NCBI GenBank assembly: GCA_963663965.2
Contig: CAXXFK010000002.1
Location: 17,789 to 81,788 of the forward strand
Direction: 5' to 3'
DNA from: Sedimentisphaerales bacterium
GTDB taxonomy: Bacteria; Planctomycetota; Phycisphaerae; Sedimentisphaerales; SM23-30
DNA length: 64,000 nucleotides
The stretch's first letter is position 1; the number at the start of each line of letters is the position of its first letter. Positions 16,743 to 29,077 of this stretch are shown in pieces. Under the pieces are notes generated by a model, which saw only the letters and a list, made by a program, of their open reading frames with translations, did no database searches and was not told where the DNA came from. A program made the translations under genes and the position numbers.

Positions 16743-16817
16743 GGTGAAAGTAGCTCAGTTGGTTAGAGCACCAGGTTGTGGTCCTGGGGGTCGGGGGTTC
16801 GAGTCCCCTCTTTCACC
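16743..16817 (+). tRNA. tRNA-His(GUG) with G-1; CCA not encoded
   Basis: Acceptor stem GTGAAAG/CTTTCAC plus G-1:C73, anticodon arm CCAGG-TTGTGGT-CCTGG, T loop TTCGAGT. Confidence 0.97.
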
Positions 16818-18200
16818 CGTTATATGACGGCAGTTCATGTGATTATGACCTGTCGTTTTTTTATTGCAACTATCTGAATCATAAGGATTTACATTTTTAT
16901 TATCATCTATACTGTTATCGGGTATATTGTCAACGGAATGTCCATTTTTGTCCTGTTTTGTGCGCCCAAAAGGCAAGCTACAGGGCAAGGTATTTTCAGC
17001 CGGTAAAGTGCCGGTCATTTTCATTTGCTGCCGGTCGATAGCATCTTGGAAATCGGGCAATCTTTCCACCGCCGCCCGGTCGTTTCCTTTGAGAACATGA
17101 GTATATTTTTGCATCGTCAGATTGATGTCTGAATGCCGCATAAGTTCCTGTGCCGTCCGGGGGTGTACTCCTGATTCTGCCAGTGCCGTTGCGAAGCCAT
17201 GACGTAATGAATAAAAGACCACGCGTCCCGATCCGTTATCTTTGGTTTCAATGTTAGCTGCTTTGCAATCTTCCTGTAAAACTTCGGACAGCTTTTTTGT
17301 TCGCTGGAATCCAAAGGCTTTTGACTGTGGGAGTTTTCGCCCAAAATGGGCCTTGAGTAATTCCGCTGTCGATTCCCGTAAAGGCAAAACAGCTTTTTTG
17401 CGGTTTTTGGTATTCGTACTGCCAACCTCAACGGTCAAATGCTTAAAATTGAAATCACCAACTTTCAGGCTGTTGAGTTCGCCGGATCGCAAACCCGTTT
17501 CACTGGCAAGCAAATAGAGTACATACCGTTCAGGTCCATCCATGTATAACATTGTCTTATCACTCCGCCTTGTTGCGTCGAGCAGGGCAACCATTTCAGC
17601 TTGCGTTAAGGGCCGGTATTCGTTCTTTTCGTGCTGACTGGTGTCAATATCGCCCACGCCGTTCAAGGGGTTCTGTGACGCTTTTCCTGACTTTATCATC
17701 CAATGACAAAACTGTTTAATTGCGCCCAGATAGTAACTTTGCGTCATGACTGTCATTTCAAGCCCAGCGATATAACTTAAAACCTGGTCGGAATGGATAT
17801 CGCTAAAGAAGGTTGCTTTGATTCCTTCACAGACCGCCTTCGCCCGATCATACTGTCTCTTAATGTGAACCTTGGATTTACCTCGATTTTCCAGTGATGC
17901 CTTAAAGGCATCCAGGAGAACCGTTAGCGATTCACTACCCGTTACGATATGGCTTGAAACCAACCCCGCTTGCGCAATTTTTTCTTTCAACTGCTTCGGG
18001 CATCGTTCCAGCACCGCCGACAGTTCCGGGCCGGGCAGTTCCCGCCTGATCTGGCAAGCGATTAACGCCTCAATCATGTCGCTATACCCCTGCGCAATCT
18101 TCTTGCTGGTGGTCTGTAAAGGCCACCGATACCGCCGCCCATCCGGCATTCTTATATCCACACGCCATGTTTTTGAGCTAGTTAGCTTATATAATCTCAT
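16755..18200 (-). CDS. Tyrosine recombinase/integrase
   Basis: TGLRSGEL, TKNRK, YSLRH, MRHS...TMQKYTH catalytic motifs; probable start MRLYK at 18200 after AAGGA; the frame runs through the tRNA antisense strand. Confidence 0.93.
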   Translation of the reverse strand: MRLYKLTSSKTWRVDIRMPDGRRYRWPLQTTSKKIAQGYSDMIEALIACQIRRELPGPELSAVLERCPKQLKEKIAQAGLVSSHIVTGSESLTVLLDAFKASLENRGKSKVHIKRQYDRAKAVCEGIKATFFSDIHSDQVLSYIAGLEMTVMTQSYYLGAIKQFCHWMIKSGKASQNPLNGVGDIDTSQHEKNEYRPLTQAEMVALLDATRRSDKTMLYMDGPERYVLYLLASETGLRSGELNSLKVGDFNFKHLTVEVGSTNTKNRKKAVLPLRESTAELLKAHFGRKLPQSKAFGFQRTKKLSEVLQEDCKAANIETKDNGSGRVVFYSLRHGFATALAESGVHPRTAQELMRHSDINLTMQKYTHVLKGNDRAAVERLPDFQDAIDRQQMKMTGTLPAENTLPCSLPFGRTKQDKNGHSVDNIPDNSIDDNKNVNPYDSDSCNKKTTGHNHMNCRHITGERGDSNPRPPGPQPGALTN

Positions 18201-18307
18201 CGTTTTATCCTTTCGCAAATGAATCCACATCTATTATAACACTTAAATACAATTAGCGCAAATATTTTCATGTGTGTGATTTAGCTTTCCTTTAATGCCG
18301 TCATCAT

Positions 18308-18362
18308 AATTAGATATAAATTTGACACATATCGGGCAATAATTTGACACAAATTAGACAAT
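18308..18362. repeat. Five head-to-tail 11-bp units (consensus AATTWGACA) upstream of the integrase gene
   Basis: Units start at 18308, 18319, 18330 (degenerate), 18341 and 18352; AATTTGACACA occurs exactly twice. Confidence 0.7.
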
Positions 18363-18365
18363 AAT

Positions 18366-18815
18366 TTACTCCTTATTGGCCTCAAAAAAGTCCACCAATC
18401 GTGTAATTACCTCTCGATCAGACGGATCTATCGCTTTTGGATTTGTAAACAGTTGAGAGATGGCCTTTTGCACTTGTAATGCAGTGGTTTTGATTCCAAA
18501 ACTCTTTAATGTGTCAGTCAGTTCCTGAAACTGGCGATCTGGGCGGCTTTTAATTGGGTTTCTGTCCTGCTTTTTCTGATTGAACAGTACGGGATGTCCC
18601 TGGAAATCTATACCGGTTTGTCGGATCTGTTTACACAGTATGAACTGCTCCAGGGTATAACAGGGGCGGCGGTTATCAATACAGTAGACCGGCGGTGGAA
18701 ATACTCCCTTTGTGAGTAACTGATAAAACCGGGCCCTGGATAGTTGCACCTGGTCTAACACCTCACGAATCGTGTAGAGGTATTTTTTGTCTTCAATTGT
18801 TTTCTTGGGAGCCAT
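18366..18815 (-). CDS. AlpA/Xis-type HTH protein with a RuvA C-terminal-domain-like tail
   Basis: N-terminus TIREVLDQVQLSRARFYQLLTKGVFPPP (AlpA); C-terminus ELTDTLKSFG...VQKAISQL...EVITRLVDFF resembles RuvA domain III. Confidence 0.65.
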   Translation of the reverse strand: MAPKKTIEDKKYLYTIREVLDQVQLSRARFYQLLTKGVFPPPVYCIDNRRPCYTLEQFILCKQIRQTGIDFQGHPVLFNQKKQDRNPIKSRPDRQFQELTDTLKSFGIKTTALQVQKAISQLFTNPKAIDPSDREVITRLVDFFEANKE

Positions 18816-18838
18816 TTTTACGGTATTTATCCAAATAG

Positions 18839-19804
18839 TTACCTGTTATGGTGTGTCATGTGTTTTAAGCCTTTTTCGGTAATGATCCGCAGGTATGATT
18901 TCCCTTTGCTGGCATACCCAGCCCAAATCAAGTAAGGTTCGATGACTTTTTGAATAGTCGAGGTCGGGAGTGATATGCCTGCACTGATTTCTCCCAGGGA
19001 AGCGTAGCCCCGCCGCATAATAATCTGTAGATATTGTCGATCCCTGACATTTAAACCCTGTTCATCAATTTGCAAGTGTTCAAAAGCTTCGCGGACATCT
19101 TCCAGCCAGATGGCCGAGTGATTGTGAACGATGGAAATATCCTTGGCAAGTTGCAGATAATTATTTAATGCCAATCGGGGAGTTCCTTTGGAACGATTCG
19201 CCAACATTTGAAGGACAGTTTTATCGGTGTAATCCCAGCCCAATCCTTTTATTTTTTGCTGAATAATCTGAACGATTTCCTCTGTGGAGTAATAAACCAA
19301 ATCGCAATGTAATCTCATACGATTTCGTAACGGCTCTTTCAAACGATACTCATCAGTCGTCGCCAGAATCATGACAAAATTGGCCAACGAAATAGGATGA
19401 TGCTGACCGGGCAGGTGTAATTTATGTTCTGACAAAGCGGTCAATAGTACATGTTGTGACTTAGTATCTAAAGCATGAGCTTCGTCAATGAATATAACCT
19501 GGTCGTTCGTGGCTTTTATTAAAATTCTGTATAAATCAGCTTTTGTCATGGATTCTCCGTCCTTCATAATGGGATCCAGGCATCCCAATTCCTGGTTAAT
19601 GACTTCAGCCAGCAAAGTTTTTCCTACCCCACTTGGACCGGTTAATAATATCGGTCCGAAGATAGAATTCCCATGGGAGGATCGTTTTTGAAAATAGGCA
19701 TCCAGGTAAGTTCCCAGTAATTTAACCGCTATTCGCTGGCCAATTATTTTTGATAGGCAAGTCACTCGATAATTGGTGACATCATTGTTATTTTTTTCAT
19801 TCAT
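18839..19804 (-). CDS. RuvB-like Holliday junction branch migration AAA+ ATPase (element-encoded paralog)
   Basis: IIGQ, GPSGVGKT, IFIDEAH, LATT, PLRNR, YSTEE, GTPR, IDEQGL...DRQYL, IEPYL, ITEKG, all collinear with RuvB. Confidence 0.9.
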   Translation of the reverse strand: MNEKNNNDVTNYRVTCLSKIIGQRIAVKLLGTYLDAYFQKRSSHGNSIFGPILLTGPSGVGKTLLAEVINQELGCLDPIMKDGESMTKADLYRILIKATNDQVIFIDEAHALDTKSQHVLLTALSEHKLHLPGQHHPISLANFVMILATTDEYRLKEPLRNRMRLHCDLVYYSTEEIVQIIQQKIKGLGWDYTDKTVLQMLANRSKGTPRLALNNYLQLAKDISIVHNHSAIWLEDVREAFEHLQIDEQGLNVRDRQYLQIIMRRGYASLGEISAGISLPTSTIQKVIEPYLIWAGYASKGKSYLRIITEKGLKHMTHHNR

Positions 19805-19926
19805 GGTTTTACTGATATCCGGTTTTTTCTTTATTTCTTTTGCACTGTATGATTCAATCGTTAAGGGCGTTATTGATTACTGAATAAATAAATCATGAGG
19901 AATTCATGGAAAGTACATAAATGACA

Positions 19927-20229
19927 TTATGGCCTTTGTTTTTTGATCAGCTCCCACTTATCGCCGGTGGGACAACCGGCGGTAATCCACTGTTTCAGCT
20001 CCATTACTGACCAGAGCAGCCGTTTGCCGAACCGAATCGGGCGTGGCAACTGGCCCCGGTTCATTAATTCATAGAAAAGAGTGCGGGAGATCCCTAAACA
20101 ATGAGCAGCGTCCGTGGCACTGAGAAGGAGCTGGTTACCACTGGTCAGTTCAGTCAGCTTGGTTAATCGCTCCATGACCTGGTGGATTTTTACCAGCATA
20201 GCTCTGATTTCATCTTGTTGGTCGGTCAT
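19927..20229 (-). CDS. AlpA family HTH/excisionase
   Basis: LLSATDAAHCLGISRTLFYELMNRGQLPRPIRFGKRLLW...ELKQWI. Confidence 0.88.
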   Translation of the reverse strand: MTDQQDEIRAMLVKIHQVMERLTKLTELTSGNQLLLSATDAAHCLGISRTLFYELMNRGQLPRPIRFGKRLLWSVMELKQWITAGCPTGDKWELIKKQRP

Positions 20230-21546: not shown

Positions 21547-22719
21547 TTATTTGGGAAAGGCAATGCCGCAGGAGGCCATCTCAAATGGCGCCCGGGCGTG
21601 ACAGTTTTCAATTGCTGAACACCGGAAACAGCCATAGGTGCCGGAGTCTGACTGGATTAAATGAGAGCAGCGGACCGGGTGATAGCCCATACGCCGGACC
21701 CGGTCAATCAGTTGCTGAGTTTCTGAAAAGGTATAACGCTGTTTATCCAGGCTGGAAATCTCATGTATCAGTTGATCGCCACCATGGAGGCAAGCCAGGT
21801 TGGTGATCAGGCCAAACCACTGAGGTTGCGAAACCAGATGTGGGAAGCGGCGGCACCACCGGATGAAATGACAACGCTCCAGTTGGGTCAGATTGCCAAT
21901 AATCAGTGTTGTTGCCGGCGGTATCGGCGACGGTGCCACCTGATCTGGGGTAATGTCACAATGAGTGATCTGCCTATGAATATCCATTGAGGGTGTTCGT
22001 GCAGGATGACTCAGGAAGCAGGAATGGCGATGAATCCGGTCCGGTGGCTGGGGGGTGCCTTTTTTGTTGATGGTCCCAATGACCCGCATAACCCGGGAGA
22101 GATTACTGACATTATCGATGCGGACCTGTTCGACCTGGCTGGAATATTGTTGTTGAAGGTTACGATAATAGGCTGTATATTGCTGGCCGACTTGGAGTGA
22201 ATCGATCGGAACGGGAACGATGGGAACAACCAGATAGGTGCCATTTCCGCTTCGGGCCATCACCGGATTGGCGTAGCGGAAAGCGCCAGTGGCAATTATC
22301 GCGGCCAGTTGATCCGTGGCCATTAATTCCGATGGCGAAGCCGGCAAACCTTGCCGGCGAATCGGCGATATGGCATCGATATCAATAAAGACGGTAGAAA
22401 GCCATTCAATGTCCTTGTCTGCTGCACAGTTGGATGTGGGGTATGAGTGAGCCCCAACCCAGCGATTAGGAGCCCACTCGAAAAATGGATCAACGGGCCG
22501 CGGATTCACACCAACATAAATCCCGGTAGTTCGTCCATCCCAAGCCTGGCAGAGCCGAACGGAATCGTCGGCATTATCCGTATACGCGACCATGGGGCAG
22601 GGGGTGAAGATTCTTAATTCCGTGCACCCCAGGTCCCGATGGCCGAGTAGGTGGTAATGGGTTGCTATGGCCTTTTCAGGAGGCAAGGATGAAATGGATT
22701 GGGTGGAAGAATAAATCAT
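21547..22719 (-). CDS. DNA primase-like protein (RepB/AEP-type catalytic domain plus Cys-rich C-terminal domain)
   Basis: IYVGVNPR, FIDID, RSGNG, SRVMRVIGTINKK; C-terminal C..(W)...PVRC...C..C cluster; start reset to MIYSS. Confidence 0.7.
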   Translation of the reverse strand: MIYSSTQSISSLPPEKAIATHYHLLGHRDLGCTELRIFTPCPMVAYTDNADDSVRLCQAWDGRTTGIYVGVNPRPVDPFFEWAPNRWVGAHSYPTSNCAADKDIEWLSTVFIDIDAISPIRRQGLPASPSELMATDQLAAIIATGAFRYANPVMARSGNGTYLVVPIVPVPIDSLQVGQQYTAYYRNLQQQYSSQVEQVRIDNVSNLSRVMRVIGTINKKGTPQPPDRIHRHSCFLSHPARTPSMDIHRQITHCDITPDQVAPSPIPPATTLIIGNLTQLERCHFIRWCRRFPHLVSQPQWFGLITNLACLHGGDQLIHEISSLDKQRYTFSETQQLIDRVRRMGYHPVRCSHLIQSDSGTYGCFRCSAIENCHARAPFEMASCGIAFPK

Positions 22720-22792
22720 AGGTTTAATGTGAAGCATTTCAAATAGGAACAACAGGGTGAAGCGCAAACATAATACAATCAGAATGAAAAGA

Positions 22793-23143
22793 TCAGCGGT
22801 GCTGATGATCAGAAAAATTGGGTTTGGGACTAGGATTAAAAGGGGGCTTGGCAGAAGAAGGAGTCCGGTTTTGCCGGCCGCGATGAAGATAACGGAAAAC
22901 AGCATAAGGAACCAGAATGACCAGGCCGAGCAGGCTAAAGGAAAGCAGCCAGGCGATAAGATCAAAATCGGTAGCATTAGGTTGATCTGGCGGCATGGCG
23001 TGGGTCATACCAATTACCGTCAGCACACCAACTGATAATGTCAGCAGAAATACCGGTTTTAGCCAGGCGGCCAAAAGACCGAAGGCCTTCTTGCCAAGGA
23101 TAACTAAAACGAGCAGAATGATAAACACGAGGAATACAAGCAT
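22793..23143 (-). CDS. Small membrane protein (about 3 TM)
   Basis: 116 aa hydrophobic ORF, 9 nt after the previous gene, RBS AGGAG. Confidence 0.6.
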   Translation of the reverse strand: MLVFLVFIILLVLVILGKKAFGLLAAWLKPVFLLTLSVGVLTVIGMTHAMPPDQPNATDFDLIAWLLSFSLLGLVILVPYAVFRYLHRGRQNRTPSSAKPPFNPSPKPNFSDHQHR

Positions 23144-23453: not shown

Positions 23454-24668
23454 TTACTCCTTCCAGGGGTTGTCCGGCATCTCATACGATGGGGCCGGCG
23501 GTGAGGTTGGTAGATTTAATGATACAGGAGGGATATCGTCAAGGCTCCATTGGGGTGGGGCCTCGACCGAAGGCGTATTGGGTGGAACCGGGGAATGAAA
23601 ATCGGGTGGTTCAGGAGGAAGTGCAACCAGGGGCGCTGATGGAGTGGCTATAATAACAGATATCGGTACCGGTAAATTGGAGGGTAAATCCGGGATCTCC
23701 ACCCGATCAGGATGGACAGGGGGCATGGTCCTTCCACCAGCATCAAAGCAAGACAGCCAGGTATCGGGGCTGGGACAATCCGCAAAGGAATTGCTGAACA
23801 AGGCCTGCTGGAACAGAATGCCTGCATCTGGATAGCGAACCTTTAAGGCATCGACAGCATATCGGATAGAAGCGCCAGCGCGTTGATCAAGATCTGATTG
23901 GGTGAACAGGCCACCTTCAGGCCCCAAAGGAGCATGGGGTTCGATAAGTAAAAATTCAACACACAGAATTGCTAGGGCAAAACGGTCTGCATGGCAACAC
24001 CAGGTTGTCTGTACATTCCGAACGAATGGAGCGATGTATCCCTCTGTGCCCATGGTGGTTGAAGGTGGCAGGGTCAAACTGGAGTGGTAGAGCGAATCGA
24101 AATCGATCAGTGCAATCTCATTGTTGGCAATGAATACATTGCCACCGGAGAGATCGCGGTGCGAAATGTTGTGCGATTCCAGTTGTTGGACAATACGGAT
24201 CAGGGTCTGGCACATTACTCGGCGGTGGTCGGATGACCATTGCAGGGAACCATCGCGCAGGCGACTGATCAGAGCATTCCAGTCGTATCCTTCCACCTTG
24301 GGCATAAGAATAGCCTGATTCAAATCGTGAGCCAGATCTTTGCTGTAAAAATAACCCAACTTACGGGTTAAGGAGTGGTCTGAGAGAATCTGACGCGCGG
24401 TTCCGCAGCGAAAGGCTGGATCGGCAGGGAGCAGAGAACTAATACCATTCAGATGTCTTTGACCGGTCAGTTTGCCGGGCAGCAGGATCTTCAAAACCCA
24501 TTGACGACCCTGCTGGTCGGTCAAAAAATAGGATTCGGCCTGGCCCCGCTGAACCGAGAGCGGTTCGCCGGAAATGATGAGATGGCCCCGAGGCTTCAGA
24601 GGTATTCCATTAATCAATGCATAGCGACGCTTGCAAAACCAGTTGACGATGGATTGGTGATATGCCAT
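23454..24668 (-). CDS. Ser/Thr protein kinase-like protein with a Pro-rich tail (TerY-P type)
   Basis: VLKI, ILMPKVEG, HRDLSGGN, LIDFD, GTEGY, DRFALA. Confidence 0.85.
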   Translation of the reverse strand: MAYHQSIVNWFCKRRYALINGIPLKPRGHLIISGEPLSVQRGQAESYFLTDQQGRQWVLKILLPGKLTGQRHLNGISSLLPADPAFRCGTARQILSDHSLTRKLGYFYSKDLAHDLNQAILMPKVEGYDWNALISRLRDGSLQWSSDHRRVMCQTLIRIVQQLESHNISHRDLSGGNVFIANNEIALIDFDSLYHSSLTLPPSTTMGTEGYIAPFVRNVQTTWCCHADRFALAILCVEFLLIEPHAPLGPEGGLFTQSDLDQRAGASIRYAVDALKVRYPDAGILFQQALFSNSFADCPSPDTWLSCFDAGGRTMPPVHPDRVEIPDLPSNLPVPISVIIATPSAPLVALPPEPPDFHSPVPPNTPSVEAPPQWSLDDIPPVSLNLPTSPPAPSYEMPDNPWKE

Positions 24669-25783
24669 TAGGAATTCCTCGTATCAGACCTGGGATGGAT
24701 CCAGATAAAAGTGATATCATCATCACCAACGGTTTCCTGGAGATTCAAATGAAGGCGACGCTCAAGATCGGTCCTATCGGTTGCTTGATGATAATCGTTC
24801 AGAAAGGACCACATGGCTTCGGGCGTTTTCTGGCTATGATAGAAGCCATCGGAACAGAGCAGGATACTGACATCCAGCGGGACTTGTTCTTCGATAAATG
24901 ACCAGCGCCCCCGGTTAAAATCATCAGGGAGTACCGCTGTAAAATTACCGGGTCGGATCAATTCAACCGGTTTGAAGGCAGAGAGGGTATGGACAGGATG
25001 AATCTGGCGCGAGTAGATAACCGTGCCCAGATCGCGGTAGTCAGGATCTTTTAAGCGTGAGAACAGATGGTCTGGAACGGCCAGGAGATCTCCCGCATTT
25101 AAAGAGGGGAATTGAGGGTGAGCGGGGAGGGCGTTTGTTGGATTACTGATCACTTGGCACAGGTGCCCTTTTTTGATACGATTCCCTTTCACTAGTTCCG
25201 GAAATTGATCGAGGGGACCTAAAGTTCGGGTTAAGATTGGATGATCAGGATCATAAATAACCCGGTAGGGACTGGGAGCAATAAAAGCATGATCCGGGGC
25301 CCAGTTGGAACAGGAGAAATTGGAAAAGAGCAGATCACCAGCAGCAGAATAGATAAAGATACCGGAATCGCCGCACCAAATCATTTTCGCCTGCAGGTGA
25401 TTGGTTTGCGGCCGGCATTGTACGGCGGCCAGAGTGGTTTGAAAACTGGACTGTAATTTCTGCTGAAGAATATCCTGATACATACCGGTAGCAGTACCGG
25501 CAGAATCGGGGATTTGAATTCCTTTAGCCATGGCCATTTGCCGATGGTGGTTCAGGATTTGGACCAAATCATTCAAGGAATGTTCCGGTTGATGGTTAAA
25601 GAGGACCAGCGAAAACAAGACACCCAATTCGGCGGCCCGGTCAGCGTAAGGTGAGGAGGTGACGCCATCACAGACACAGGCGGAGAGAGTCGGGCTGACA
25701 TAGTCAGCCCGATCCTGATTTTTGGTTTCTCCCCCCAAGATGGCGGGAGAAATCAGCTTGGTAAAATCAAATTGTGGTTTCAT
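24668..25783 (-). CDS. PP2C-family protein phosphatase (TerY-P type)
   Basis: NQD, VCDGVTSS, QTTL, GDSG, LCSDG, DDDIT; stop overlaps the kinase start. Confidence 0.85.
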   Translation of the reverse strand: MKPQFDFTKLISPAILGGETKNQDRADYVSPTLSACVCDGVTSSPYADRAAELGVLFSLVLFNHQPEHSLNDLVQILNHHRQMAMAKGIQIPDSAGTATGMYQDILQQKLQSSFQTTLAAVQCRPQTNHLQAKMIWCGDSGIFIYSAAGDLLFSNFSCSNWAPDHAFIAPSPYRVIYDPDHPILTRTLGPLDQFPELVKGNRIKKGHLCQVISNPTNALPAHPQFPSLNAGDLLAVPDHLFSRLKDPDYRDLGTVIYSRQIHPVHTLSAFKPVELIRPGNFTAVLPDDFNRGRWSFIEEQVPLDVSILLCSDGFYHSQKTPEAMWSFLNDYHQATDRTDLERRLHLNLQETVGDDDITFIWIHPRSDTRNS

Positions 25784-25788
25784 ATTAG

Positions 25789-26598
25789 TTACCTATCCTG
25801 TCGATCGTGCCGGCTACCCCCGCTGCCGGCTATCTGCAAACAATTCTTGACCATCTCACGGGATCTAATGTCAAAAAATAATCGTGACTGATTACGAATA
25901 TTGGGAAAAATATTTTCGTTAACCAAATTCTGATGAATGGTTTCCGGCATCACACTGCTCATATTGAACAATCTGATGTTATTGACAGAGGGACCCGCTT
26001 CCGATTCCATAACATAGCCGGGGAAATCCTGAGGCCCCTGATAGTTCAAACTGGTTTGGGAACCGATGAAGGCGTTAGCCACCAGCGCATTGCCATCTTG
26101 CACTGACAGTGATTTGATTTTTTCTGCAATGGGGCTGGCATCGGTGTGACTAAGGCCATCAGTGAAATGAAAAACCAACGGAGGAAAGGAATTTTGAAAC
26201 CGGTCATCACGCAGGTGTTGCTCTAACGATTGATAAGCCATTTCAAAAGCAGCTAAGGTGTCAGTCCCGCCCAGGTGGCCTCCTTGCCCAAAGGAATTAC
26301 CGGCTTGGCTATAACGATCCACTACGGTTTGGATATCCATCAAGGGATCCCCCCAGAAGTGGGGTGATTTTCCATAGAAGATAATCCCGATGTAATAACG
26401 AGGCTTAACAATAATCGAGTCGCCCTGAACATCGGTAGAGCGGGTCAGCATTTCTTTGATGATATGGCCCATAAATCGCGCAATCCATTCCCAGACGGGG
26501 ACATCAGAACCAGGAAATGAATCGGCGACAGAACCACTTTCATCAACAATAAAAAAAACAATGGTAGGCAAAAAGGATGAAACTATTCTTTCATACAT
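25789..26598 (-). CDS. vWA domain protein (TerY-like)
   Basis: MIDAS motif DESGS, GGTDT, PPLVFHFTDG. Confidence 0.85.
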   Translation of the reverse strand: MYERIVSSFLPTIVFFIVDESGSVADSFPGSDVPVWEWIARFMGHIIKEMLTRSTDVQGDSIIVKPRYYIGIIFYGKSPHFWGDPLMDIQTVVDRYSQAGNSFGQGGHLGGTDTLAAFEMAYQSLEQHLRDDRFQNSFPPLVFHFTDGLSHTDASPIAEKIKSLSVQDGNALVANAFIGSQTSLNYQGPQDFPGYVMESEAGPSVNNIRLFNMSSVMPETIHQNLVNENIFPNIRNQSRLFFDIRSREMVKNCLQIAGSGGSRHDRQDR

Positions 26599-26717
26599 GA
26601 TAGGACCTTTCAAAAATAAGAACAGATAGAACAGAAAACACGAAAAAGCTATAGAGCAAATGATCGGTTAAAACAGATAGGCGGCGCATGAGATAGGTTA
26701 TCAAGAGGAAACATGCA

Positions 26718-26960
26718 TTATTCCTTGCGATTGGGGAAGTCGAAGAAAAAACGTAAAATGAAAACAATGAAAAGCAGAATCAGACTCATCGCCAGCAGAC
26801 TGCGGACAATCGGATTGGATTGGTTAATCGGCTCCAACGCATCAATCAGCCAAGTAAAGAAAGGTTTGCCAAGTTCGATCAGACGATCATATTGAAATGC
26901 GAGCATCAAAAGGATGAACAGCAACGTAATATTACGAAATTTAAGCTTTAATTGACTCAT
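26718..26960 (-). CDS. Small two-TM protein
   Basis: 80 aa; start overlaps the ATPase stop (ATGA). Confidence 0.6.
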   Translation of the reverse strand: MSQLKLKFRNITLLFILLMLAFQYDRLIELGKPFFTWLIDALEPINQSNPIVRSLLAMSLILLFIVFILRFFFDFPNRKE

Positions 26961-29077
26961 AGCAGCTTCTCCCAGTTGCCTTGACGTAAATGGGCGAAAT
27001 TAAGAAACGAAAACCGTGCGGTGAAATCAGGGGGCAGGACGGCAGAATTCTGAAAAAAAGATTTGACTGCTGTAGCAGTGGTATAATCTCGGCACAGCCA
27101 AATAACCTTATCAAAACCGGCGGTTTGCAACCTCGCAGCATTACTAAGAAGATTGCTGGTGGATAGAGTCACCTCAATGGCAAACCGGATTCCGGCTGAA
27201 TCGGTAGCCACCAAGTCAATAGTGGAACCTTTGGAACCATGCGGGACTTCACTTTGCACCTGATACTTGGAACCTCGTTGAATGAAATAAGCAGCCAGGT
27301 CGACTAAAAAAGAATGTTCCAGACTGACAGAGCGGAGGTATGGAGAGTGTATGTTGAATTTTTCATACGCCGCTTTGGTCGGAACCAGGTATTTGACCCG
27401 GCCGACACTGATTTGAGTCAATAGATTGGCGGAAAGAGCGGTTTTCAGAGCGGCCTGAAATTCGCGGACAGAAGCAAAGTTAGGTATTCGTTCACTGGAG
27501 GTCACGAACCGGTGGGTGATACAATCGAAAACCAGCCGATCGTATTTGTCCGAAATTATGGGTGTAGGATCCTTAGGTTGAGCTTGAGCAGGAGGATTCG
27601 AAGGAGGAGTGACGGAAACTGATGGTAATTGGTCGAGGGGATGCCAGGGTTTGATCCGGTAGGATAAATCATTGTTTAGAGATGAGGTAATAGGTAGATC
27701 AGGGACGGGTGGCGTCCAGCCATGAATAGGCCGGCGCCAGGGATGGTCGGCGATGAACGCCAACATCTCCCGGTTTTGAAAACGAGTAATGGCAGCGGTC
27801 TGTGGGTCGGACAGGGACATGAAATTCCGGATGACTGACAAATTTTCATTGCCGTGAATATTGCCTGTGACGATCATATTGCGGCAGAGGCTAACAAGCG
27901 GTGGATCGATTTGGGCGGGCAAATGCGAAACCAAAATAACAGCGGTTCCGGTGGATCGGAGGGTGGCCAACATGTGGGCAAGCGGTGAGATATTGCCATC
28001 GGCAGACCGGTTGGACTCCAGAAACCGATTTCCATCATCGATGACGATAAGATGGTGGATCTGATTGGTTTCCGGTAAATGACGGGCATTTTGGTATAAC
28101 CAATAAAGCAAGAGGTTTAAAAAAGATTTGGATTGAAAAGAATTCGTTAAACCCCTTGCATTGAGAATGTTATTGCGACTGAATAACCAGCTTGGGTGCA
28201 GGCTCTGGCGGCAGGCAAAAAGATTTGAGTTATCCACAATCAATCCGATGCCGGTTTTAGTGGCATCCAGATAACCCTGGAGGCGGAAATTCTTGAATTG
28301 CATCCGATCCAGTTCATATAGCAGATCTTTAAAGCAGATCTCGCAGGCTTCTCCGGTTTGACTAGCATATCGGTCGCGCTTTTCCAGGCAGATTCGAGCT
28401 GCCTTATTTAGAAGATCAAGGCCGTAGATCAGACCGGTGTCACCTGCCAGGGTGGACATGAATTCTAAAACATATTTCTCACGGGATATCGAGGGCGGAG
28501 GGGTCAGGTCAAAGCTGACCGAGGCAAGATCGATGGGAACTGCATTAATAAATGGAGCGAGGGTGGATAACCCGTTTTTGGGATCAATAATCGTAATGGT
28601 GACATCAGGGCGAAAAATAGTGAACGCTTGCAGCAGATGAATTAAAAAATATGTTTTCCCACTGCCCGGAGGACCGACCAACAATAAATAGGTCCTAAGG
28701 AAATCAGTGTCGATAAATACTTTCATGTAATTCATCAGGATGGTTAGAAGCAATGGTCCAAGGCGTGAAAACGAAAAAGGGAGTAAAGGCCGGAATAGAT
28801 CGGGCTTACGGATTGATTCGAGGTCATCTTGATCAAGGATGAGTTTTAACCGAGACAGGAGGGATTCAACAATATGTGGTAGGCGAGAATGTTCCAGTTT
28901 AAAAAGAATATTTTGGACAGTAGCATTATGGACCAGACCGGAATCGATGAGTTTACTTTCCAAGTCCCATGAGAGAAAAGGATATTCTTGGGAAGGATCA
29001 ATGCCAAAAATAACCCCAATGAAAATGGATATTAAAATTCCGATAAGTAATATTGTCATATCAGTTTTCATCTCCAT
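26957..29077 (-). CDS. HerA/FtsK/VirB4-clade ATPase with N-terminal TM and C-terminal PD-(D/E)xK-like domain
   Basis: GPPGSGKT, IIDPK, LIVIDD, LRSTGTAVILVSH; C-terminus EH...EV...IDLV...AIEV. Confidence 0.75.
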   Translation of the reverse strand: MEMKTDMTILLIGILISIFIGVIFGIDPSQEYPFLSWDLESKLIDSGLVHNATVQNILFKLEHSRLPHIVESLLSRLKLILDQDDLESIRKPDLFRPLLPFSFSRLGPLLLTILMNYMKVFIDTDFLRTYLLLVGPPGSGKTYFLIHLLQAFTIFRPDVTITIIDPKNGLSTLAPFINAVPIDLASVSFDLTPPPSISREKYVLEFMSTLAGDTGLIYGLDLLNKAARICLEKRDRYASQTGEACEICFKDLLYELDRMQFKNFRLQGYLDATKTGIGLIVDNSNLFACRQSLHPSWLFSRNNILNARGLTNSFQSKSFLNLLLYWLYQNARHLPETNQIHHLIVIDDGNRFLESNRSADGNISPLAHMLATLRSTGTAVILVSHLPAQIDPPLVSLCRNMIVTGNIHGNENLSVIRNFMSLSDPQTAAITRFQNREMLAFIADHPWRRPIHGWTPPVPDLPITSSLNNDLSYRIKPWHPLDQLPSVSVTPPSNPPAQAQPKDPTPIISDKYDRLVFDCITHRFVTSSERIPNFASVREFQAALKTALSANLLTQISVGRVKYLVPTKAAYEKFNIHSPYLRSVSLEHSFLVDLAAYFIQRGSKYQVQSEVPHGSKGSTIDLVATDSAGIRFAIEVTLSTSNLLSNAARLQTAGFDKVIWLCRDYTTATAVKSFFQNSAVLPPDFTARFSFLNFAHLRQGNWEKLL

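Follow-up and report, generated by a model that had tools for sequence, protein, structure and literature searches.

In a 64,000-nucleotide stretch of the genome of a Sedimentisphaerales bacterium (hereafter the window; contig CAXXFK010000002.1, positions 17,789 to 81,788 of the forward strand), three elements on the minus strand form a unit conserved on genomic islands of Planctomycetota: the gene of a 321-amino-acid (aa) RuvB paralog (18839-19804; Pfam RuvB_N, AAA_lid_4 and RuvB_C), the gene of a 149-aa two-domain protein (18366-18815) and a five-unit array of 11-bp direct repeats (18306-18360), found by repeat search, which is a candidate binding site. We propose that the small protein would coat the array and load a ring of the paralog on duplex DNA, in the service of recombination or upkeep of a genomic island; we put the probability of this reading at about 0.5. 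A preliminary description of the locus had grouped four co-oriented minus-strand open reading frames (ORFs), namely the two genes above, a tyrosine integrase and an AlpA-like gene, and had tied the motor to the integrase. The ORFs are as described and their coordinates were confirmed, but the conserved unit is paralog, 149-aa protein and array, not four genes. That description had recognised an undescribed system and its anatomy was largely right, whereas the tie to the integrase was wrong and the array was missed.

The unit is evident from the gene neighbourhoods. In 301 genomes of the class we found 11 paralog loci besides that of the window, each followed immediately by a small-gene homolog. 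With the scan of genome contigs included, the small gene is next downstream in 24/24 paralog loci with downstream sequence (2 further loci stop at a contig edge and are outside this count), and it stands beside none of six canonical ruvB genes. Searching with the small protein gave matches in 7/401 genomes of the phylum and 21/251 of the order, and 18 of 21 new loci found from the partner side have the paralog directly upstream. The adjacency spans two classes, and the pair is also present on one viral contig. Distances between the RuvB paralogs correlate with those between their partners (0.70 over 31 loci) more closely than with those of the nearest tyrosine recombinase (0.25 over 24 loci); in the 8 loci with a long integrase the two values are 0.79 and 0.01, kin not being independent in any of these sets. 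A synteny survey, as proposed in the preliminary description, thus returned ruvB and the small gene as conserved neighbours, also in other elements, and the integrase and AlpA genes as not fixed parts. That the pair is a functional unit is, in our judgement, highly probable. A single-protein scan of genome contigs found nothing, and one homolog as query gave no match in 72,556 plasmids and 50,697 phages. Among the matches listed by alignment scans of viral and metagenome contigs, which arose from Walker A, there was no paralog, and absence does not follow from this.

The paralog differs from the housekeeping RuvB. It scores 184 bits against a RuvB equivalog cut-off of 282, and the host RuvB scores 457. 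A quick tree was built on 87 rows, after two thirds of the nearest database hits and 10 rows that were degenerate, partial or duplicated had been set aside; in it, 25 canonical RuvBs, the host's included, are split from 23 pair-associated ones by a branch with SH-aLRT support of 99. By these sequence comparisons the window RuvB does not belong to the vertically inherited clade but is a paralog, and orthology with the housekeeping RuvB fails. It had been considered that this gene might be the vertically inherited and only ruvB of the host; instead it falls in a separate clade, and the host has a canonical ruvB at C39:20409-21461, whose product is 27% identical to the window paralog. The absence of ruvA and ruvC from the window was confirmed, the canonical host genes being at C7:13944-14591 and C10:91687-92181, so that ruvA, ruvB and ruvC lie mutually unlinked on three other contigs. 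Domain III of the host RuvA is so diverged that Pfam RuvA_C misses it.

All the motifs previously read in the paralog are present: Walker A and B, sensor 1, the Arg finger, sensor 2 and the winged helix. In an alignment of 99 paralogs K62, D107, E108, R162, R210, E289 and R306 are invariant, and the ATPase motifs (Walker A/B, Arg finger, sensor 2) are unchanged, as is the last wing arginine; the wing arginines of RuvB contact DNA (PMC10071043, PMC10272136). The shortened RuvA-contacting hairpin is found in this copy, with 18 residues between fixed anchor columns, but does not hold as a family trait: 89/99 paralogs have 21-23 residues, against 24 in 24/25 canonical RuvBs, and a short hairpin as an adaptation of the family was rejected. 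In five loci a second, degenerate RuvB-like protein of ~250 aa, without Walker B or winged helix, is encoded near the pair (L036:7434-8186, L037:12983-13750, L039:15043-15807, L040:4313-5071 and L041:8492-9268, the last in tandem, upstream); it is possibly an inactive subunit or regulator. The module also explains extra 'RuvB' genes of Planctomycetota, up to three per genome (in G110), that databases mislabel as housekeeping helicases. The third pair of G110 (L390:7366-8818) has diverged further, and no array was detected beside it.

The 149-aa protein consists of a winged helix (residues ~10-78), a basic linker and a three-helix tail (94-148). Its AlphaFold2 model has a pLDDT of 90.7, and the tail is three-helical in two models. 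NCBIfam and Pfam have no model for this protein, which has 390 relatives among 50% cluster representatives. The helix-turn-helix (HTH) of AlpA type that had been assigned to it is only weakly matched by Pfam AlpA, below the cut-off (E 0.017, residues 16-43), although its MerR-like winged-helix fold stands; HTH_17 and AlpA match 71 and 77 of 110 homologs (E up to 1). In structural comparison of the modelled head the GIsul2 excisionase (8c3t) gave Z 6.3 (rmsd 2.2, 57 residues aligned), RacA Z 5.8, RdfS (8dgl) Z 5.5, pSK1 Par Z 5.3 and BldC (6amk) Z 4.4. As modelled, the head is a winged helix of the Xis/MerR/BldC type. Its comparison with the full RuvA alignment gave a score of 10.2 and a probability of 0.08%, and the partner contains no junction-binding domains I/II.

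The tail had been described as patterned like RuvA domain III. The three helices were borne out, and domain III gave the best profile resemblance, albeit by a small margin. Aligned with hhalign, a profile of 110 tail sequences matched one of 28 RuvA domain III sequences over 50 columns with a score of 22.5, compared with 7.8 +/- 1.9 for shuffled controls (0/150 reached 22.5) and with 10.5, 15.7 and 8.7 for the control profiles EF-Ts N, IF2_N and PrmC_N. Both share an L-x-x-L-G-hydrophobic turn and the hydrophobic-Arg pattern of the last helix, and the tail model superposes on RuvA domain III (1ixs_A) over 50/50 residues with Z 4.1 and rmsd 2.6. When the tail was co-folded with the paralog the score was 0.56, versus 0.00 for the best of 3 controls; contacts agreed to 100% between runs and the partner pLDDT was at least 80. 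The mark set for such a co-fold is reached by 116/157 solved pairs and 2/215 mismatched pairs. Profiles and models speak weakly against a tail that neither matches domain III nor binds RuvB, an outcome that had been named as refuting the idea. Homology of the tail to RuvA domain III is likely, judged from profiles and models, and these individually weak lines taken together with the gene context make it probable that the tail binds the paralog.

Family and fold searches were less specific. Pfam RuvA_C did not match the tail of the 149-aa protein, gave no passing match overall (best E 0.16) and is not among the 25 commonest families over the 110 homologs; the resemblance emerges only when one profile is compared with another. 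Foldseek returned nothing at E 0.001 for the full model or the tail, and when its top 109 were re-aligned, exosome Rrp4 and EF-hand proteins came above RuvA domain III; an atlas feature search with the tail alone gave no usable match. A search for longer, fused forms of the protein found none, which is weak evidence. Two other origins of the tail were rejected: a duplicate of the head (score 8.6 over 5 columns) and IF2_N, whose score extends over 19 columns. Valine is the commonest last residue of the family (20/110; Gly-Val in 10), as expected where the first repeat overlaps the stop codon. On a large-phage contig (L199:4443-5144) the same winged-helix head is fused to an endonuclease VII domain, without tail, array or RuvB.

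The array begins 6 bp past the stop codon of the 149-aa gene and consists of five imperfect direct repeats with the consensus TGTC(T/A)AA. Over 34 loci, dinucleotide autocorrelation at this position peaks at lags 11 (0.172) and 22 (0.178), the remaining lags giving 0.05-0.10, or about 0.07; one of these two lags scores best in 26/34 loci, and z is at least 3 in 17/34. Control sets were flat, with z of at least 3 in 2/30 upstream of the paralog, 1/24 after canonical ruvB and 1/32 at 200 bp further on. Eleven loci added later gave 0.160 and 0.145, with lag 11 or 22 best in 8/11. When the 7.24-Mb genome was scanned with a matrix that excluded the window locus but included its relatives, the window array came top with 38.0, the next site reaching 22.5. 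Where the paralog is missing, in three loci, the array still accompanies the small gene, and in loci with an Xer-like recombinase gene it extends to the start codon of that next gene. In L194, where the recognition helix is altered, the period is kept and the TGTC motif is lost, which is a single case. On direct repeats, BldC subunits line up head to tail, one helical turn apart (PMC5859096, PMC11963761), and such spacing fits the 11-bp period, so that we infer head-to-tail binding here as well. From the sequence, the array is a candidate for the defined site of the 149-aa protein, and binding by the head is quite probable.

Related motifs were met elsewhere. At 16917-16960 of the window (plus strand), in the integrase tail near a tRNA gene, three TGTC/TGTCC motifs are spaced by 10-11 bp; their score of 10.1 is weak and their orientation is opposite to that of the main array. 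In L082 and L083, GGAC arrays of a similar kind precede the paralog. Near-perfect 11-bp tandem arrays of TGTC(T/A)(A/G)A, mostly intergenic, are common in unrelated viral contigs of IMG/VR (L307-L362), and some of them abut the end of an integrase or serine recombinase gene (L352, L336).

A mechanism can be drawn from these parts. In the manner of BldC, the winged-helix heads would occupy the array head to tail, with a subunit at every helical turn. With five heads in phase, about five RuvA-domain-III-like tails would point the same way, aligned on one face of the DNA, which is about the number that a RuvB ring can take. The tails may then assemble and activate a paralog ring on the adjoining duplex, a step to which the co-fold points weakly. 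RuvA domain III tethers RuvB, activates it and promotes its nucleotide exchange (PMC9477746); RuvB itself travels on duplex DNA and does not unwind it (PMC10272136). By analogy we lean towards a paralog ring that translocates DNA. From the mechanics of RuvB, an anchored ring would pull the duplex and could reel in a loop, twist the DNA from a fixed address and strip proteins. This might serve to bring together or clear the sites of the island's recombinase, for excision or circle resolution, as FtsK does for Xer. Support of recombination, whichever recombinase is present, is in our view the likeliest purpose, at somewhat less than even odds. It is tempting to speculate, more tentatively still, that the module is a RuvAB in which the junction sensor was swapped for a sequence reader and whose anchored ring extrudes a loop, as a recombinase-independent engine of synapsis or segregation. 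The preliminary idea that junction recognition has been replaced by an HTH that loads RuvB at a defined site has gained a candidate array and a weak co-fold, and has lost the link to the integrase.

Several observations weigh against this loading of a RuvB ring at the array. The hhalign probability for tail and RuvA_C profile is low (56.7%), and the lid window of RuvB itself scores 19.1, the best of 19 RuvB/RuvA windows, which leaves a margin of 3.4. In the structural ranking 1ixs_A stands 24th, tied with UBA, EF-hand and RMI1 bundles; calmodulin gave a gapless weak match to the tail, and RuvA did not stand out in HMM rank tests run either way round. The co-fold value of 0.56 lies in the weak band up to 0.60, which holds 18/157 solved pairs and both passing mismatches; moreover, the co-fold gave a score without an interface, and the pass may reflect memory of the solved RuvA-RuvB complex. 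In the motor, the nucleotide gate pair of RuvB, Arg21/Glu128 (PMC9477746), is intact in 0/99 paralogs versus 25/25 canonical RuvBs, residue correspondence being by alignment; the window paralog keeps the Arg and has Ser instead of Glu. The paralogs also lack the Arg after Walker B, and their wings hold on average 2.7 Lys and Arg versus 3.9 in canonical RuvBs. With these canonical residues lost, processive pumping is uncertain. In 3/21 new loci the small gene and array occur with no paralog in the 5-18 kb available. Finally, an array-first search, in which 84 were scanned, found similar arrays with mixed flanking genes in 56 viral contigs that have neither gene, so that the motif alone is not diagnostic; what is unique is its position, not its class.

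Among the alternatives, a transcriptional switch survives best, although we consider it unlikely. Here a regulator like BldC or RdfS would coat the array and RuvB would remodel the filament to toggle the recombinase gene, with no pumping. RdfS and BldC do act on transcription through sites of this kind (PMC11963761, PMC5859096). The array invariably separates the small gene from the gene that follows, a second array is present in some loci where the small gene starts, and three loci have small gene and array but no paralog. In the window, a promoter-like extended -10 (TGnTATAAT) with a weak -35 at 17 bp, read from the sequence (18233-18261, minus strand), precedes the integrase 45 bp beyond the array; a consensus promoter scan omitted it because the -35 hexamer matches at 3/6 positions. 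The gene after the array varies, however (integrase, Xer-like, radical SAM, methyltransferase or HTH), while the array is fixed to the stop codon of the small gene. A full RuvB with a DNA-binding wing would be costly for a switch, and the genome has no other strong array and thus no regulon.

Somewhat less likely is a role in maintenance of an excised circle, with the array as a centromere or iteron-like origin, the small protein as binder or initiator, and RuvB as the NTPase of a new system of partition or replication start. The anatomy of site, adaptor and NTPase is that of partition cassettes and is present here. The head matches the DNA-binding domains of RacA and pSK1 Par, the 137 bp containing the array have 27% GC, and the pair occurs inside islands beside genes for an Xer-like resolvase and the antirestriction protein ArdC. 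Against it stand the lack of a match in the plasmid and phage collections, searched with one query, and the fact that we know of no RuvB-type partition NTPase. In addition, RuvB does not unwind DNA (PMC10272136), and no circular form was seen among contigs of the same sample, which could not have shown one.

The preliminary model, in which the motor migrates the Holliday junction of the adjacent integrase at its attachment (att) site and sets directionality, is improbable. The pair does abut an integrase at a tRNA gene in the window. The integrase ORF (16755-18230, minus strand; PF00589, E 3e-25) likely starts at 18200, and its homolog on contig C24 begins at the second Met; Tyr replaces His in its HxxR motif. 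Its 3' end runs into the antisense of a tRNA-His gene (16744-16818, plus strand; ARAGORN), which had been overlooked and probably marks both the insertion site and the left end of the island; the last residues of the integrase would change on excision. Housekeeping genes lie to the left of tRNA-His and island-type cargo to the right. No second att copy is present within the window; a 32-bp match to tRNA-His on contig C6 closes a related island and is not linkable to the window contig. Contigs from the same sample, which are not independent support, agree with the window at this locus and contain no att joint.

Beyond the window, a tyrosine recombinase lies within 3 kb of the pair in 24/31 loci. 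An Xer-like gene (~300 aa, 57-198 bp away), whose product does pass through a junction, directly follows in 16 of them, a long integrase is present in 8 (in 3 of these in opposite orientation), and 7/31 have none within that distance. In L083, L090 and L377, all with the pair, and in L193, which is without the paralog, this position beside a tRNA gene is occupied by a large serine recombinase. Serine recombinases form no Holliday junction, so that migrating a junction on behalf of the integrase cannot be what the module does in general. Tyrosine recombinases, for their part, need no motor to isomerise their junction, which moves by a few bp within the synapse. The distances of the recombinases do not track those of the pair, as the correlation of 0.01 illustrates. 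In three complete genomes, islands of ~19, 36 and 41 kb are outlined by short direct repeats and hold the pair well inside, 5-19 kb from the inferred ends (the repeats measure 19-25 bp, and two of them coincide with called tRNAs); the array of the window is ~1.5 kb from the tRNA. The recombinase is a freely exchanged neighbour and not a fixed part of the module. The deep branches sampled all carry an Xer-like gene, often with ArdC upstream, and the combination of motor, adaptor and array with a resolvase may be the more ancient one.

Least likely is that the tail is an unrelated three-helix bundle, for oligomerisation or of EF-hand/UBA type, and that the genes merely travel together, the paralog acting alone or with host RuvA: an undiscriminating fold search, the failure of Pfam RuvA_C and the fruitless search for a fused form would agree with it, but not the near-obligate adjacency across two classes with co-divergence, the profile match to precisely the domain that binds RuvB, or a co-fold pass with controls at zero.

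The module resembles known systems in its single parts. With RuvAB it shares a RuvB-type AAA+ motor with lid and winged helix, a partner gene that adjoins ruvB and a three-helix domain on a flexible linker whose best match is RuvA domain III, the binder of the RuvB presensor-1 hairpin. Unlike RuvAB, it has no domains I/II and no RuvC; its partner has a winged-helix head and a cis repeat array, it resides on mobile islands in addition to the host ruvA, ruvB and ruvC, its gate pair is never intact and its motor falls below the equivalog cut-off. Head fold, direct repeats of one turn and proximity to recombinases are as in BldC, RdfS, lambda-type Xis and GIsul2 AlpA; unlike these, the module has the three-helix tail, an almost obligate AAA+ partner and several recombinase families, and its array is at the gene's own 3' end and not in att arms. 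As in the familiar FtsK-KOPS-XerCD system, an oriented site would load a hexameric duplex translocase near an Xer-like recombinase, whereas the motor here is AAA+ and not of the RecA fold, the adaptor is separate and the system is encoded by the element. Partition cassettes, pSK1 Par and RacA likewise combine an array, a MerR-like binder and an NTPase in one cassette; the NTPase of the module is RuvB-like and not ParA, ParM or TubZ, and its home is the integrated island, the plasmid collection having given no match. The module is RuvAB-like in its motor and probably in its tether, and BldC/Xis-like in site recognition. It is not a member of RuvAB, because the junction-binding domains are absent and orthology fails.

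To our knowledge, RuvB has been regarded as a motor that depends on RuvA for its loading, and on a Holliday junction as the place of loading. If our reading is correct, the RuvB motor could be retargeted by the swap of one domain; on the more tentative view of a swapped junction sensor, the module would represent a programmable, junction-free RuvB and a new class of element-encoded DNA machine. The module would also provide a system of two proteins and one site in which loading and activation of RuvB can be studied without a junction, and would point to an unrecognised ATP-dependent step in excision, resolution or persistence of islands. The array makes the idea of loading at a fixed address testable. 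No description of the arrangement was found in the literature surveyed, PMC7824862 included and most subscription papers excepted.

The remaining features of the window were assigned as follows. The AlpA/HTH_17 gene upstream of the paralog (100 aa, assigned by Pfam; 19927-20229, minus strand), which had been counted as part of the unit, is not conserved beside the pair and forms no cluster in the synteny map. It is an ordinary excisionase-like island gene, with homologs in three other integrase islands of the same genome that show no RuvB paralog. A putative element primase (21547-22977), for which the paralog had been suggested as the missing helicase, has no match in Pfam, NCBIfam, PHROGs or the PDB sequences; the suggestion has no support on the side of the motor either, since RuvB translocates without unwinding (PMC10272136). 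Further along, 23454-29077 encode a triad of kinase, PP2C phosphatase and vWA protein together with a 706-aa P-loop ATPase; upstream of the pair in related islands are genes for HerA/TrwB-like ATPases, Hsp70 with vWA, tubulin-like and ThiF proteins. Defence cargo fills 31543-58841 (NACHT-HEAT, sigma-54 activator, type I restriction-modification, Fic, DUF2130 and AAA with DUF3696), and a close paralogous cargo block is located at G000:C6:245600-260700, in the island that ends in the 32-bp tRNA-His fragment.

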